DNA of 64,000 nucleotides from Candidatus Magasanikiibacteriota bacterium. GTDB lineage: Bacteria; Patescibacteriota; Patescibacteriia; Magasanikbacterales; UBA922. Made by a program: the position numbers and the translations under genes. Numbering within the stretch: position 1 is the stretch's first letter; every line of letters begins with the position of its first letter. Under the pieces are notes generated by a model, which had not been told where the DNA came from, did not search any database, and saw only the letters and a list, made by a program, of their open reading frames with translations. The DNA lies in contig DOYU01000022.1 of assembly GCA_003518365.1 (NCBI GenBank), forward strand, positions 24,095 through 88,094, read 5' to 3'. Shown here one piece after another: positions 7,292 through 60,588 of this stretch.

Positions 7292-7328
7292 TTGCAAGTA
7301 GCAATGAACAACTAGCAATAAACAAAAA

Positions 7329-7353
7329 AATAGTCCGAAAGGGCTGTTTTTTT
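7329..7353 (+). terminator. Putative terminator after rpsJ: a short stem with a GAAA tetraloop (agtcc gaaa gggct) followed by T8
   Basis: It is preceded by A7, so it could act in both directions. Confidence 0.45.
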
Positions 7354-7367
7354 TGTTTGGTGGTAAT

Positions 7368-7478
7368 GCAAGCAACCCTACCTCCTGTCCTCCTTCCCTT
7401 AAAAAGGGAAAGAGGAACGTGCTAAGAAGGTTTCCTCCTCTTTTTAAGGGAAGGGTTAGGGTGGGGTTGCGTTGCCGC
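7368..7478. repeat. Copy 1 of a hairpin repeat element with terminal inverted repeats, which I call MITE/REP-like (TIR gcaaccctacc ... ggtggggttgc)
   Basis: It shares a 29-nt 5' block and the 3' TIR with the copy at 59139..59215. Confidence 0.7.
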
Positions 7479-7575: not shown

Positions 7576-7604
7576 TTGACAGCCTAGAGAAAGTGAGATA
7601 CAAT
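7576..7604 (+). promoter_or_regulatory. Sigma70 promoter: TTGACA, 17-nt spacer, TACAAT, positioned to drive rplC and the downstream ribosomal genes
   Basis: TTGACA is at 7576-7581 and TACAAT at 7599-7604. Confidence 0.55.
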
Positions 7605-7804
7605 TGTGCCGCACTCAATACTTATATTTCTGTGCACGATAGCTTCATTCGCGGAGCAGATAAGATCTTCTCTTTCGACTCATTCAGTGGTTCAGGGAAA
7701 GAAAACATCTGTGGACGCCCGAAGATATCAGGAGAACACTACTGACACATTCCAATTTGTTACAAGCCTTCGCAAGTCCGCCTTGGGCGGATTATTCCAT
7801 AAGG

Positions 7805-7882
7805 CTAGAAAGAAAGGGTCCAATGCCGTTGTATTGATATCTTTCTTTCTAGTTTTTTGTTACCTTCCCGCATTGCGGGAAG
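7805..7882 (+). promoter_or_regulatory. Attenuator-like leader structure about 40 nt upstream of rplC: a 12-bp perfect stem (ctagaaagaaag...ctttctttctag), then T6, then a second 8-bp hairpin (cttcccgc att gcgggaag)
   Basis: Read directly from the sequence. By analogy only, it resembles the L4-mediated attenuation seen in S10 operon leaders. Confidence 0.4.
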
Positions 7883-7894
7883 CAATGACTGCAT

Positions 7895-24140: not shown

Positions 24141-25436
24141 ATGAATGCACGTATATCACAGTTTAAAGACCACGTCGGCCAAGAAGTCACCATCCAAGGA
24201 TGGATTCAAGGAGGACGATCTTCTGGCAAGATCGCCTTTTTTGAGATTCGCGATGGCTCTGGATTTACGCAGGCAGTGGTAGCTCAAGAGAGTGTGTCTG
24301 ACGATGTCTGGCAACAGGCTGTCGGTGCCTCACAAGAGTCTTCCGTTCGACTAACAGGGACTGTCTCTGCACATCCAAAAAAAGAAGGTGTATTTGAACT
24401 TCAAGTATCGAGCATGAAAGTCGTGGGTGCTTCAGAAGAATATCCTATCGGGAACAAAGAGCATGGTCCGGATTTTCTCATGAATCATCGTCACCTCTGG
24501 CTCCGTAGCAAAAAGCAATGGGCGATTCTTCGCATCAGAGATACGGTAGAGCGAGCGATTATGAATTTTATGCATGAACAAACATTCGTGCGTACTGATT
24601 CTCCTATTTTTACGCCAAACGCGTGCGAAGGAACCACAGATTTATTTCCTGTCCCATATTTTGATCTTGGGGAAGCATATCTGTCACAGTCTGGACAACT
24701 CTATATCGAAGCGGCTATTGCGAGCGTCGGACGATGTTATGATTTTGGTCCAGTGTTTCGTGCAGAAAAATCTGTCACAAAACGGCATCTCACAGAATTT
24801 TGGATGATGGATGCAGAAGCGGCATTTGTCGAGCATGATGAAAACATGAATATCCAAGAAGCGCTTGTGAAATATATTGTCAAAGCGTGTCTCACAGAAT
24901 GTAAAGAAGAATTTGTTATTCTGGAGCGAGATACGACGCCATTAGAAAAACTTCTTGAACTTTCATTCGAACGACTCGAATACGATGATGCTATTGTTCG
25001 TCTCAATGAACTCGGATCAGATATTAAGCATGGAGAAGATCTTGGTAATGATGATGAAGGCTTGCTCACGCAGAATAGTCCTGTGCCAGTCTTCATCCAC
25101 AAATGGCCAAAGCATATCAAGCCATTTTATATGAAAATTGATCCAGAAAATCCAGCACGCGTCTTCAACAACGATCTTATTGGTATTGAAGGATCTGGAG
25201 AAATTATTGGTGGATCACAGCGTGAAGATAATTATGATTTGCTTTTGGAACGTATCAAAGCTGATGGGCTGAGTCCAGAAGAATATGAATGGTATCTTGA
25301 TCTTCGAAAATACGGCAGTGTGCCACATTCAGGATTTGGTATTGGGCTCGAGCGTATGGTGAGATGGATGTCTGGTACAGAGCATATTCGTGAATGTATT
25401 CCATTTCCACGATTGGTAAATAGAATAAAACCGTAA
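24141..25436 (+). CDS. asnS: Asparaginyl-tRNA synthetase
   Basis: Class IIb synthetase motifs (FRAEKSVTKRHLTEFWMMDAE and GGSQREDNYDLL) and a length near 430 aa. Confidence 0.85.
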   Translation: MNARISQFKDHVGQEVTIQGWIQGGRSSGKIAFFEIRDGSGFTQAVVAQESVSDDVWQQAVGASQESSVRLTGTVSAHPKKEGVFELQVSSMKVVGASEEYPIGNKEHGPDFLMNHRHLWLRSKKQWAILRIRDTVERAIMNFMHEQTFVRTDSPIFTPNACEGTTDLFPVPYFDLGEAYLSQSGQLYIEAAIASVGRCYDFGPVFRAEKSVTKRHLTEFWMMDAEAAFVEHDENMNIQEALVKYIVKACLTECKEEFVILERDTTPLEKLLELSFERLEYDDAIVRLNELGSDIKHGEDLGNDDEGLLTQNSPVPVFIHKWPKHIKPFYMKIDPENPARVFNNDLIGIEGSGEIIGGSQREDNYDLLLERIKADGLSPEEYEWYLDLRKYGSVPHSGFGIGLERMVRWMSGTEHIRECIPFPRLVNRIKP

Positions 25437-25445
25437 TAGCACGTT

Positions 25446-25468
25446 TCTCCTCCTTACTAAGGAGGAGA
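25446..25468 (+). terminator. Perfect 10-bp hairpin (tctcctcctt act aaggaggaga) after asnS, followed by aggaggttttctt. It is a putative terminator or SD-sequestering structure.
   Basis: Read directly from the sequence. Confidence 0.45.
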
Positions 25469-25569
25469 ACAAGAGGAGGTTTTCTTAGCAAGCAAAAGGA
25501 GGGGATATGACAAAGCTGTATAATAAGCAAGAATATACAAAAAAACGAAATGTATAAAACATATATACT

Positions 25570-41364: not shown

Positions 41365-41367
41365 ATG

Positions 41368-41451
41368 TGCCCTGGGAGAGACTCGAACTCTCATGATGTT
41401 GCCATCACTGGATTTTGAGTCCAGCGCGTCTACCAGTTCCACCACCAGGGC
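41368..41451 (-). tRNA. tRNA-Leu(CAA), 84 nt with a long variable arm and no encoded CCA
   Basis: Folds as a 7-bp acceptor stem GCCCTGG/CCAGGGC, anticodon loop CTCAAAA, long variable arm TGATGGCAACATCATG, and T-arm GAGAG TTCGAGT CTCTC. Confidence 0.85.
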
Positions 41452-41457
41452 ATGTAT

Positions 41458-41792: not shown

Positions 41793-41830
41793 TGAGTCCA
41801 GCGCGTCTACCAGTTCCACCACCAGGGCAT
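41793..41830 (-). repeat. A 38-nt exact duplicate of the tRNA-Leu 5' half (2 nt of 5' flank plus tRNA nucleotides 1-36, ending inside the anticodon)
   Basis: 41793..41830 is identical to 41416..41453. Confidence 0.85.
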
Positions 41831-52077: not shown

Positions 52078-52613
52078 GTGATCCAGTCAGTAATATGAGT
52101 ATGCGCATCTTCTGCCATTTTTTTTATTGCTCGTTTTTCGAACATGCTAAATTTTCCGAGGACAAAGTTCACTGTATCTTCCATTTGGCGAGGATGATCT
52201 GATGCAATGCCGAGTCGAATGCGAGTAAAATTTTGTGTGCCAAGATGTTCTATAATTGATTTAACGCCGTTGTGTCCCGCTGCTCCTCTGTCTTTTTGTA
52301 CTTTGATCGTGCCGAGTGCAATATCCTTTTCATCATGTAAGACGATGAGGTCTTTTGTTGGGTCGAGTGTATAGTAATTGATCAGCAACCCTACCGACTG
52401 CCCTGAGTTGTTCATGAAAGTCATTGGTTTTACGAGCATGATAGATTCATTCACAATAGATCCTTCGCTTATTTCGGCATTAAATTTTTTACTGAGTGAC
52501 CATTTTTTCATGCCTGGGAGCTTTTGGAGTTCATCCAACACAAGAAACCCAGCGTTGTGTCGAGTTTTTTCGTATTGTTTCCCTGGATTCCCTAATCCTA
52601 CGATGAGCTTCAT
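52074..52613 (-). CDS. pth: Peptidyl-tRNA hydrolase
   Basis: MKLIVGLGNPG...TRHNAGF. Confidence 0.9.
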   Translation of the reverse strand: MKLIVGLGNPGKQYEKTRHNAGFLVLDELQKLPGMKKWSLSKKFNAEISEGSIVNESIMLVKPMTFMNNSGQSVGLLINYYTLDPTKDLIVLHDEKDIALGTIKVQKDRGAAGHNGVKSIIEHLGTQNFTRIRLGIASDHPRQMEDTVNFVLGKFSMFEKRAIKKMAEDAHTHITDWIT

Positions 52614-58602: not shown

Positions 58603-58692
58603 GTGTATTTTGGGCACATCGTTGTCGGCCTCATTCTATCCTTTGCCTAAGTGGGCGTTGGAAAGAAGAGGCAAACGCATCAAGGGAACACC

Positions 58693-58914
58693 ATGCATTG
58701 TGTCAAGAAGGTCGGTTCCGAGTATGTTCAAGCCGACTTCCACCTGGCCACCCGCGGGAATCACCGGCGCATCCTGGTGCCGGTCCGTCCTCTCAGGGAA
58801 GGAGATCCCCTCCCCAAGGGAGTGTCCTCGATGATGGATCTCGGTAGGCTCTGTGCCACTGAGCGAGAGCTGAAGGCCGCCCGCGTCGCTGCGGGAGTGC
58901 CGCACCGCGGCTAG
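58693..58914 (+). CDS. Possible small ORF or pseudogene fragment in a GC-rich islet. The frame has a strong GC3 skew, an AAGGGA RBS precedes the ATG at 58693, and the track ORF starts at GTG 58651.
   Basis: About 70% of third-codon positions are G/C in this frame and not in the antisense ORF. No family was recognised. Confidence 0.25.
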   Translation: MHCVKKVGSEYVQADFHLATRGNHRRILVPVRPLREGDPLPKGVSSMMDLGRLCATERELKAARVAAGVPHRG

Positions 58915-59086
58915 CACTTCATCGCCGTCCACGTGGCAAGGAGAGGGCTGCGTGTACTCATCCGCGGCCCTCTCCTCTGAGAATTGCATTTGTACCCAAC
59001 CACTCGCACCTCACTGTGATTTGAACTCAAAACGTTCAAGTCAGAGCAAGGTAGCTCATATCGAGTGGTTGTCTCTACAATTAAAA

Positions 59087-59115
59087 ACACTCCGTGTAAG
59101 CGGGGTGTTTTTTTT
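59087..59115 (+). terminator. Rho-independent terminator (acactccg tgtaag cggggtgt followed by T8)
   Basis: Read directly from the sequence. Confidence 0.7.
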
Positions 59116-59138: not shown

Positions 59139-59215
59139 GCAACCCTACCTTCTGTCCTCCTTCCCTTATAAAATATTCCTTCCCCTTTTTAAGGGGAGGG
59201 CTAGGGTAGGGTTGC
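59139..59215. repeat. Copy 2 of the MITE/REP-like hairpin element with terminal inverted repeats (perfect 11-bp TIR gcaaccctacc ... ggtagggttgc)
   Basis: It shares the 29-nt 5' block gcaaccctacctyctgtcctccttccctt and the 3' TIR with 7368..7478. Confidence 0.7.
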
Positions 59216-59229
59216 GTGGCTAACAGTCA

Positions 59230-60588
59230 TTACGTCTTTGCAATCAATTCTTCTATATTTTTTACTTGCACTGTTTTTACACCATCAATGATTGGTACGG
59301 CTTTACTCGCTGCGGTGATGACGCGTGTCATGCCAAGCTGGGCTGCTTCTTTTATTCTTTTTTCGAGAAAACGTACGGATCGGACTTCACCGCCAAGACC
59401 GACTTCTCCAAACACGACCAAATCTTTGCCACCGGATTTTTCTTTGAAACTACTTGCGATGGCAAGGCAGACTGCAAGATCTACCGATGGTTCTGTTGCT
59501 TTTACACCGCCGACAACATTGAGATGAATGTCGTACTGTCCGAGATCTAGGCCTGCCCGTTTTTGTAGCACGGCGACGAGGACGTGGAGGCGATTGATAT
59601 CAAAGCCACTTGCTTTTCGTACTGGATATCCAAAACTTGTTTTGTTTACCAGTGCCTGGATTTCTACGAGGAGTGGGCGCGTGCCTTCCATGAGGCAGGT
59701 GATAATACTGCCAGGCATGTCGTCACCTCGTTCTGCGAGAAAGGCGGCGGATGGATTTGCTACACCAAAAAGACCATCGCTTTTCATTTCAAAAATACCA
59801 ACTTCGTCTGTGGATCCAAATCTATTTTTGACAGCGCGAAGAATTCTGTATACATGATATCTATCTCCTTCGAGGTATAGGACGGTGTCGACAAGATGTT
59901 CCAGTGTTTTGGGGCCGGCCACCGTGCCGTCTTTTGTGACATGTCCGATAAGGACGACTGGCACGCCGCTCGACTTTGCAGCGTCGAGGAGTGTTACGGT
60001 GCAGGCACGAATTTGGGACACACTTCCTGATTCTCCTGTCGCGTCCGCATTCCACATGGTTTGCATGGAGTCGACGATTACTAACTGTGGTTTGAGTTTT
60101 TTAATTGTACTAGAAATAACATCAATGTTTGTCTCATTCGAGAGGGAAAGAGACGCATGGCTATGCGTCTTTACGTCGTTCATGTTTAGTCTATCGGCTC
60201 TTAGTTTGATTTGTTCGACGGATTCTTCTCCGGAGAAGTAGAGTGTGTTTGGGATGCTGGCAGCGAGCTGGAGAGACAGTGTGGATTTCCCAATGCCAGG
60301 TTCACCGCCAAGCAGTGTGAGGCTTCCCGGGACAATGCCACCGCCGAGGACACGGTCAAGTTCGCTGATATGTGTTTGTGCTCTGACGATGTTTTTCCCT
60401 GCGATATCTTTCAATGATGTTGTCTTTGCAACAGGGAGATCTTGAAGATTTTTTGATTTGTTATTTTCTTGTGTTATTGCCTTCTCAAGCGTACCCCATT
60501 TGCCACATTCAAGACACCTGCCGTTCCATTTTGTAAACTGGGCGTCGCAGTTTGTACAAGAAAAAATAGTTGTGTTTTTTTCAGCCAT
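59230..60588 (-). CDS. radA: DNA repair protein RadA/Sms
   Basis: An N-terminal C4 zinc ribbon, a RecA-like ATPase (GEPGIGKST) and a Lon-like C-terminal domain. Confidence 0.9.
   Translation of the reverse strand: MAEKNTTIFSCTNCDAQFTKWNGRCLECGKWGTLEKAITQENNKSKNLQDLPVAKTTSLKDIAGKNIVRAQTHISELDRVLGGGIVPGSLTLLGGEPGIGKSTLSLQLAASIPNTLYFSGEESVEQIKLRADRLNMNDVKTHSHASLSLSNETNIDVISSTIKKLKPQLVIVDSMQTMWNADATGESGSVSQIRACTVTLLDAAKSSGVPVVLIGHVTKDGTVAGPKTLEHLVDTVLYLEGDRYHVYRILRAVKNRFGSTDEVGIFEMKSDGLFGVANPSAAFLAERGDDMPGSIITCLMEGTRPLLVEIQALVNKTSFGYPVRKASGFDINRLHVLVAVLQKRAGLDLGQYDIHLNVVGGVKATEPSVDLAVCLAIASSFKEKSGGKDLVVFGEVGLGGEVRSVRFLEKRIKEAAQLGMTRVITAASKAVPIIDGVKTVQVKNIEELIAKT

Follow-up and report, generated by a model that had tools for sequence, protein, structure and literature searches.

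The window analyzed here, a 64-kb stretch of DNA with 42% GC, has Candidatus Magasanikbacteria (Patescibacteria/candidate phyla radiation [CPR] group) as its closest named relatives. Its plus strand carries tuf, rpsJ, rplC, rplD, rplW, and rplB; recG and radA are found further along the window, and its RpsJ is identical to the protein found in groundwater assemblies including GCA_003488405.1. Our subject is a family of short hairpin repeats, represented in this window by copy 1, in the spacer between rpsJ and rplC, and copy 2, next to the end of radA. The original prediction described them as a two-copy family similar to miniature inverted-repeat transposable elements (MITEs) or repetitive extragenic palindromes (REPs), each copy folding as one long hairpin with 11-bp terminal inverted repeats. 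Both copies were found at the predicted sites, although their cores are narrower, and the family includes a third, solo unit in the window. As argued below, these elements probably travel with genes of DUF559 endonucleases. The features concerned are as follows, with slashes separating the segments of each unit.

7324-7353: rpsJ-side terminator, upstream of copy 1

7372-7470 (99 nt), plus strand: copy 1, located after the terminator of rpsJ and ahead of the promoter of rplC, a complete inverted doublet in which 17 nt of spacer separate arms A and B

7375-7415, minus strand: arm A of copy 1, CCTCTTTCCCT / tttta / AGGGAAGGAGG / aca / GGAGGTAGGGT

7433-7468, plus strand: arm B of copy 1, TCCTCCTCTT / ttt / AAGGGAAGGG / tta / GGGTGGGGTT, and then the GC terminus (7469-7470)

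25447-25480, plus strand: solo unit, CTCCTCCT / tacta / AGGAGGAG / aacaa / GAGGAGGT, without the GCAAC terminus

59083-59112: radA-side terminator, bidirectional, formed by a hairpin and a U-run (-17.2 kcal/mol, z -5.35)

59139-59215 (77 nt), plus strand: copy 2, an inverted doublet whose arm A is truncated, with the bidirectional terminator (59083-59112) on one side and the end of radA on the other

59139-59166, minus strand: remnant of arm A of copy 2, GGGAAGGAGG aca GAAGGTAGGG, with the purine stem and mirror third strand kept and the C-rich stem lost

59178-59213, plus strand: arm B of copy 2, CCTTCCCCTT / ttt / AAGGGGAGGG / cta / GGGTAGGGTT, and then the GC terminus (59214-59215)

59230-59232, minus strand: radA stop codon

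Rather than a single long hairpin, each copy consists of two dissimilar arms in a back-to-back arrangement, and each arm has a triplex-type motif of its own. An arm starts with a C-rich stem and a loop, continues with a homopurine stem and a second loop of 3 nt (ACA, TTA, or CTA), and closes with a mirror-image purine-rich stem that allows G·G:C, A·A:T, or T·A:T triplets with the first purine stem. The stems of the window family are CCTTCCCC/GGGGAGGG/GGGTAGGG and CCTCTTTCCC/GGGAAGGAGG/GGAGGTAGGG. Arm A of copy 1 has 10 Watson-Crick pairs and one G-T pair out of 11, with 11/11 purine-motif triplets, and its arm B, of which the hairpin is degenerate, has seven Watson-Crick and two G-T pairs out of 10 and 9/10 triplets. 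Arm B of copy 2 (nine Watson-Crick pairs and one G-T pair of 10; 9/10 triplets) fits the B-arm pattern used below for metagenomes. Arms A and B differ in every doublet compared. The outer ends of a doublet are formed by the third-strand tails, which terminate in GCAAC and GTTGC and give it the appearance of a single long hairpin bounded by terminal inverted repeats. The triplex fold of the window arms is a potential only, and arm B is also a canonical G-quadruplex motif (GGGG-A-GGG-CTA-GGG-TA-GGG).

The terminal 11-mers, GCAACCCTACC and GGTRGGGTTGC, behave as had been predicted, being perfect in copy 2 and having one mismatch in copy 1 (a T-G pair on the plus strand). With up to one mismatch allowed, GCAACCCTACC occurs six times in the window, against 0.29 expected. 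A repeat finder matched the first 34 nt of the two copies (7372-7405 versus 59139-59172) at 94% identity and the last 45 nt (7431-7475 versus 59176-59220) at 84%, and local alignment placed both copies in the same orientation, with ~22 additional central bases in copy 1. Both fold far more strongly than shuffled sequence, either as RNA (-59.5 kcal/mol and z -6.75 for copy 1; -39.7 kcal/mol and z -3.9 for copy 2) or as DNA (z -5.7 and -3.9, respectively). Across copies, element size ranges from 77 to 113 bp. A scan of the whole window with the three-segment rule gave four motifs, arms of the two copies and the solo unit, versus none in 30 block shuffles, and the units fall at three loci (copies 1 and 2 and the solo unit), dispersed and intergenic, single or as an inverted pair. 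The solo unit begins 10 nt past the end of a gene for a class II aminoacyl-tRNA synthetase (24141-25436) and precedes an rsmB-like gene; it is flanked by a sequence (..AACGTGCTA..) similar to the copy 1 spacer. An exact GCAACCCTACC is also present at 52385-52395 (plus strand), inside a minus-strand coding region. It was considered as another copy and discarded, as it has no hairpin or triplex motif and only 65% identity over 34 nt beyond the 11-mer, and is probably due to chance.

The rho-independent terminators predicted just upstream of both copies were also found. The one at 59083-59112 was not picked up by the consensus terminator scan and was seen by folding. Copy 2 is located in the 3' untranslated region (UTR) of radA, ahead of this shared bidirectional terminator. 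No T-run directly follows either doublet, so they are not themselves intrinsic terminators as defined by a GC-rich hairpin plus a U-run.

To find relatives, genomes were scanned using the two termini separated by a gap as the query, which returned 28 loci. Three of them (L010, L027, and L035) are close relatives and correspond to three different loci of a single Magasanikbacteria metagenome-assembled genome (MAG). In L035, the unit is placed like copy 1, right after a terminator and ahead of a promoter. Six other loci, GC-rich and of like design, belong to Saprospiraceae, Hymenobacter, and Anaerolineae. Most of the 28 were discarded as unrelated, including chance palindromes; matches in Lysobacterales with GTAAGCG ends are presumably of the IS66 type. 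Metagenomes were scanned with the B-arm pattern, in which the C-rich partner was not required, and provided 70 loci, ~58 of them distinct, with GC contents from 35 to 73%. The C-rich partner was nevertheless present in 51/58 distinct loci, compared to 15% at random positions, and was joined through 38 different loop sequences. The same pattern had no matches in viral contigs. The doublets of two metagenomic loci, L047 and L050, are near-identical to copy 1 along arm A, the spacer ACGTGCTAAG, and arm B but are found at other loci, and the whole doublet is therefore a unit of propagation. The expectation of further close copies at other loci of related genomes was thus borne out (L010, L027, L035, L047, and L050). 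Target-site duplications, which the original prediction suggested looking for, were not seen, with no direct repeat in the flanks of eight copies. In seven other loci (L037, L071, L077, L080, L082, L088, and L090), a B-type unit is fused to the 3' end of an open reading frame (ORF) that finishes in ..LLPKLISGELRLDEIPSP-stop, with the stop in the hairpin loop, an ending that we take to be typical of type I restriction specificity (HsdS) subunits.

Insertion polymorphism, another point that the original prediction suggested checking, was evident at both window sites, where relatives differ in the presence of the element. The rpsJ-rplC region was compared with L116, L117, and L118, whose RplC proteins are 82%, 74%, and 72% identical to that of the window. 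The doublet is absent from this slot in all three, and all three retain the rpsJ terminator, a variable insert, and the conserved promoter TTGACAGCCTAGAGAAAGTGAGATACAAT, as well as a ~290-nt leader in which an attenuator-like hairpin is found. Judging from this comparison, copy 1 is a lineage-specific insertion into a variable slot. Since relatives without the doublet keep the same terminator, a separate rplC promoter, and the leader, the separation of rpsJ from rplC is ancestral in the clade and not caused by the repeat, contrary to the suggestion that copy 1 had detached rpsJ from the rest of the S10 operon. This slot, delimited by the terminator of rpsJ and the promoter of rplC, is a hotspot in the three relatives (L116, 1-330; L117, 1020-1360; L118, 690-1320). 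That of L116 holds the 3' end of an IS200-like Y1 transposase (a tnpA remnant), unrelated to the units, and those of L117 and L118 hold GC-rich ORFs on the opposite strand. Each insert is preceded by a related hairpin, GAGTTGGGACCGCCGCGAGC...GCGGTCCCAACT in L117 and diverged versions of it in L116 and L118.

The region downstream from radA had orthologous loci in L010 (RadA 90% and RecG 82% identical, with recG retained) and L050 (RadA 79%). In L010, the radA stop is followed by a B-type unit, a 135-aa ORF, a complete doublet, and the shared terminator. The ORF belongs to DUF559 (PF04480, E = 1e-29), and its last codons and stop lie inside a GCAACCCTACC-TAA terminus. In L050, the order is radA stop, doublet, and a DUF559 gene (68% identical to the L010 protein) truncated by an insertion sequence. 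At the window site, the outer boundaries are unchanged and the 38 nt found ahead of the L010 start codon are also present, and the DUF559 gene is absent. A perfect 20-bp palindrome, CCTGCCTGCCGGCAGGCAGG, is nested in the unit ahead of the DUF559 gene (L010, 1665-1684) and missing from the orthologous unit of the window. We also considered that the terminal inverted repeat could be a relic of the sequence coding for the N-terminal R-x-N-P-T of DUF559 and dropped it, as it was based only on the L010 ORF ending in R-N-P-T-stop within the repeat.

DUF559 is among the commonest small uncharacterized nuclease domains. The unit-flanked genes were identified as such by PF04480, NF007294, and PDB 3HRL, the latter being the only sequence match of the DUF559 protein among solved structures. 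The YcjD protein, a member of this group, is related to Vsr (PMC1189080). Genes directly flanked by units were found in the same lineage in L010, L047, and L050, and 7 of the ~58 distinct B-arm loci have a DUF559 gene within ~150 nt. In an eighth, L091, the gene is located 8 kb from the unit by which the locus was selected and has its own unit, of a different subtype, 30 nt upstream.

The converse comparison started from eight homologues of the L010 DUF559 protein (from Patescibacteria, Marinifilum, Chitinophagales, Saprospiraceae, and further metagenome contigs), chosen only by homology and by the size of their contigs and not for the presence of units. With a strict three-segment rule requiring at least 7/8 triplets, all 13 motifs detected were located no more than 200 nt from the DUF559 ORF, with no others over 35 kb (P ~2e-10). 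Three of the eight genes had no strict motif, although direct or inverted repeats common to the upstream and downstream flanks were found in seven, including these three. The stems vary by lineage (GGAAAGGG, AAGGGAGG, GAGAAGGG, AGAGAGGG, and GGAGAGGG), while the third strand mirrors the purine stem in every motif passing the rule, which itself demands at least 7/8 triplets. In L110, the gene occupies the exact center of a divergent doublet bounded by GCAACTCAT...ATGAGTTGC, that is, a doublet of the window type with a gene in place of the spacer. In L108, it is flanked on each side by a copy of a 147-nt doublet, the two copies being direct repeats with 94% identity. A large share of the DUF559 homologues is on contigs shorter than 2 kb, as would be expected if assemblies break at flanking repeats. 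Altogether, the association of the units with DUF559 genes, close and recurrent in bacteria only very distantly related to each other, is almost certainly real, and we found no paper linking DUF559 or YcjD to repeats of the BoxC or triplex type.

The same association extends to Escherichia coli, in which a repeat first called BoxC, later PIT, and then TM_ECO follows the pattern CCCTCNCCC-N3-6-GGGNGAGGG-N3-GGGNGAGGG (Holder et al. 2015, PMC4666352). In strain MG1655, ycjD is annotated as DUF559, and the CPR DUF559 protein matches the YcjD model of NCBIfam at 3e-18. The stop codon of ycjD is inside a unit-type hairpin, and TM_ECO no. 9 is located 170 nt downstream; ycjD is not mentioned in PMC4666352. 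The last ~45 nt of the gene are duplicated ~60 nt past its stop, between the stop-codon hairpin and TM_ECO no. 9 (L107, 5240-5430, in the ycjD-fabI spacer), which looks like the scar of an earlier DUF559 copy, and L115 has a 3'-end duplication of the same kind. Among complete E. coli genomes, ycjD is present in 3378 of 5426. We counted BoxC-like sites in an evenly spaced sample of them, with 37 ycjD-positive and 22 ycjD-negative chromosomes. All the positive ones had 15 to 33 sites, whereas 12 of the 22 negative ones had five or fewer, and every genome at this low level lacked ycjD (Fisher P = 6e-7).

Several other explanations have to be weighed against these data. A classical MITE, meaning a deletion derivative of an insertion sequence with a DDE transposase, moved in trans by cut-and-paste through its terminal inverted repeats, would account for the 11-bp repeats, the size of 77 to 113 bp, the hairpin fold, the existence of several copies, and their presence or absence among relatives. 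However, none of the eight copy boundaries has a target-site duplication, the window has no transposase homologue, and neither the window nor ~120 loci yielded a parental insertion sequence with these ends. The two arms are different structured units, also found singly, the only gene repeatedly inside or beside the elements is the DUF559 nuclease, and this is also the only gene found between matching ends (L110), making a MITE origin highly improbable. We consider it very unlikely, if slightly less so, that these are REPs, or REP doublets (REPINs), mobilized by a REP-associated tyrosine transposase (RAYT; an IS200-like Y1 enzyme) encoded elsewhere in the genome. Inverted doublets of short hairpins, the lack of target duplication, the intergenic position after genes, a nuclease gene flanked by its own repeats, and even the IS200-like tnpA remnant in the rpsJ-rplC slot of L116 would be in line with it. 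Yet there is no conserved GTAG/CGTC tag 5' of the palindrome (the GTAG contained in GGTAGGG is 3' of the hairpin, and is GTGG in most copies), and the flanked gene is DUF559, of a different fold. Y1 transposases were absent from the window and from the neighborhoods of units in ~120 loci. The search for a cognate transposase or RAYT gene, suggested with the original prediction, led in relatives to a DUF559 gene flanked by units. Probes made from an IS200 TnpA sequence (employed only as a probe), from the L116 fragment, and from DUF559 gave nothing significant in the window.

The position of the units would also fit cis-acting hairpins, such as back-up or bidirectional terminators, stabilizers of mRNA 3' ends, insulators, or sites for DNA-binding proteins, because copy 1 and the L035 unit directly follow a terminator and precede a promoter, the radA 3' UTR contains copy 2, the solo unit lies 10 nt past a stop, and the folds of the two copies are very stable. 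This is unlikely, considering that copy 1 is missing from three relatives that retain terminator, promoter, and leader, that no U-run follows the hairpins, and that a mirror third strand and GCAAC ends, unneeded for a generic hairpin, are conserved across phyla. In addition, tests of E. coli PIT elements in earlier work cited in PMC4666352 were negative for promoter and terminator activity. Finally, small structured RNA genes, or a chance likeness of two AT/CT-rich hairpins, are barely credible. In favor of the former are the significant folds and weak Rfam matches to plant microRNA precursors, which reflect only long hairpins. Using gathering and E-value thresholds, no Rfam family was found for either copy (generic hairpins such as plant microRNA precursors and small nucleolar RNA remained below threshold), nor did a tRNA and transfer-messenger RNA scan detect anything relevant to them. 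Neither copy is preceded by a promoter, copy 1 follows a strong terminator, and purine-motif triplexes do not form in RNA (PMC4666352). Against chance are the excess of the 11-mer, the lack of motifs in 30 shuffles, and the dozens of related copies elsewhere. A resemblance to attC cores was also discarded, since the ends, compared by eye, are unlike RYYYAAC/GTTRRRY.

What these results favor is a dispersed repeat family traveling with genes of DUF559 (YcjD-like, Vsr-fold PD-(D/E)XK) nucleases, to which copies 1 and 2 and the solo unit would belong as gene-less members; we regard this as likely. The original description as MITE- or REP-like was correct in pointing to a proliferating family and not to two conserved regulatory sites, but the elements are neither classical MITEs nor REP/REPIN sequences. 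RAYTs were first tied to REPs through their flanking by cognate repeats, and by the same logic, we propose DUF559 as the cognate nuclease here. That it is the agent spreading or maintaining the repeats is a tentative suggestion, for which the chances are a little short of even. By this mechanism, the nuclease would recognize the unit, either as a sequence or as a folded hairpin or triplex, and nick it. Repair of the break, or recombination between units, would copy doublets, or a doublet with the gene, to new intergenic sites, and recombination between flanking doublets would remove the gene and leave a solo doublet, as might have happened at the radA site (copy 2). In a broader sense, BoxC/PIT-type repeats, from the candidate phyla to E. 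coli, might perhaps be the cognate repeats of DUF559 endonucleases, a second partnership like that of REPs and RAYTs built on a different nuclease fold; we put this forward with similar reserve.

A number of observations weigh against this proposal. DUF559 probes revealed no such gene in the 64-kb window. The gene may be placed inside a doublet, beside one, or between direct doublet repeats, and these varied layouts cannot all be fitted by one transposition geometry. There are still ~15 BoxC sites in certain E. coli lineages that lack ycjD, O157:H7 among them, and the correlation between ycjD and BoxC is consistent with the DUF559 link yet confounded by phylogeny. According to PMC4666352, a stable triplex was not seen in vivo and the E. 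coli motif is "not associated with" mobile elements. The stems in the window (8 to 11 nt) are A/T-richer than those of TM_ECO and the strict TM_ECO pattern is unmatched, and the window pairs are divergent, with third strands outward and GCAAC/GTTGC-closed, in contrast to the convergent pair TM_ECO 1+2 as mapped from Table 1 of that paper. The association could also mean that DUF559 cassettes target such hairpins, or decay into them, rather than mobilize them. As for their effect on the cell, the window copies are most likely selfish or neutral passengers in the DNA just past terminators and stop codons. Given its location in the radA 3' UTR, ahead of the bidirectional terminator that is shared there, copy 2 may incidentally provide the radA mRNA with a stable 3' hairpin and stabilize it.

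Other features of the window next to these elements are the following.

7576-7604, plus strand: rplC promoter, near consensus (TTGACA-17-TACAAT)

7576-7894, plus strand: region of the rplC leader (~290 nt), which ends in a long attenuator-like hairpin and T-run at 7806-7858

58651-58914, plus strand: small GC-rich ORF in the "GC islet" beside recG, with 52% protein identity to its L010 counterpart and no Pfam family

The rplC leader is conserved in sequence and structure in the three Magasanikbacteria relatives, with compensatory changes at six pairs. It had no Rfam family match and is a candidate for a ribosomal-protein (L4-type) autoregulatory leader. The GC islet had been considered as an RNA, an option discarded since it is at least in part a small protein-coding ORF. 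The 200 nt past this ORF (58915-59115) are near-identical between the window and L010, exceeding the conservation of the flanking genes, and end in the bidirectional terminator; they could be a conserved 3' UTR or a small RNA. Elsewhere, an exact 38-nt direct repeat (41416-41453 and 41793-41830, 377 nt apart), whose first copy overlaps tRNA-Leu(CAA) at 41367-41451, could be an integration scar or a partial tRNA duplication.

To our knowledge, BoxC/PIT/TM repeats have been recognized since the 1990s, are conserved in hundreds of genomes, and are linked to local instability, with no known origin, function, or mobilizing activity. The present results extend the class to a reduced candidate-phyla genome. 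The link between DUF559 and the repeats, reproducible, apparently unreported, and including E. coli ycjD, makes the origin of this orphan repeat class experimentally testable. If true, a nuclease recognizing a folded or mirror-symmetric unit would drive the copying and loss of units and the known local instability, and this would account at once for a repeat family without a function since the 1990s and for a widespread domain of unknown function. In annotation, the repeat class explains spurious small ORFs and contig breaks.

Among known systems, REP/REPIN elements and their RAYTs, reportedly described by Nunvar (2010), Bertels and Rainey (2011), and Ton-Hoang (2012), share with the window family the short hairpin units in inverted doublets without target duplication, and the combination of many gene-less copies with a low-copy nuclease gene flanked by cognate repeats. 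They differ in that the window units have no GTAG tag and carry a mirror-repeat third segment lacking in REPs, and in that the flanked gene is a Vsr-fold DUF559 instead of a Y1 (HUH) transposase. MITEs such as Correia/NEMIS, RUP, and ERIC are similar in size, terminal inverted repeats, long hairpin, and intergenic location near gene ends, whereas the window elements show no target-site duplication, have no parental transposase-encoding insertion sequence that we could find, and have arms that are independent modules, also found alone. Free-standing homing endonuclease genes include the Vsr-like (EDxHD) I-Bth0305I lineage. They resemble the DUF559 genes in being small nuclease genes present or absent at an otherwise collinear site, with the 3' end of the gene duplicated alongside (E. 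coli ycjD and L115) and a spread that is likely repair-driven. In contrast, DUF559 genes are not in introns or inteins, and their embedding in dispersed repeats means that the homing target, if there is one, would be the repeat.

The closest parallel is BoxC/PIT/TM_ECO, whose earlier literature is said to include Bachellier et al. in the 1990s and Hoyne and Maher in 2000 and 2002. The unit architecture is the same, with a 3-nt loop that is TTA or CTA in the window and TTA in E. coli type A, and the unit adjoins a DUF559 gene in both E. coli and the window lineage. Both families are dispersed, intergenic, highly conserved, and arranged singly or as inverted pairs of two subtypes. In MG1655, all 23 copies are intergenic, and five loci are inverted pairs, always of type A plus type B (PMC4666352). 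Small deletions leave the hairpin in both families, as in copy 2, and loci vary among relatives. For the E. coli motif, loci are likewise unusually variable among strains, and palindromic pairs often lose small parts while the hairpin is kept (PMC4666352). As differences, loop 1 reaches 7 to 9 nt in the window family and the host is a candidate-phyla (Patescibacteria) genome. The intrastrand purine-motif triplex of E. coli was demonstrated in vitro by circular dichroism and nuclear magnetic resonance (PMC4666352), whereas that of the window units is predicted. The TM_ECO pattern appears 3610 times in 262 proteobacterial genomes, with other G/C-rich triplex motifs in cyanobacteria (PMC4666352). 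We found no description of such repeats for candidate-phyla bacteria, although the class itself had been described. Very probably, the window elements belong to this BoxC/PIT-type class. Because the strict E. coli pattern is unmatched, though the design, the two-subtype pairing, and the partial deletion are shared, they are, as far as their sequences indicate, a separate sequence family of the BoxC/PIT/TM design and not TM_ECO in the strict sense.

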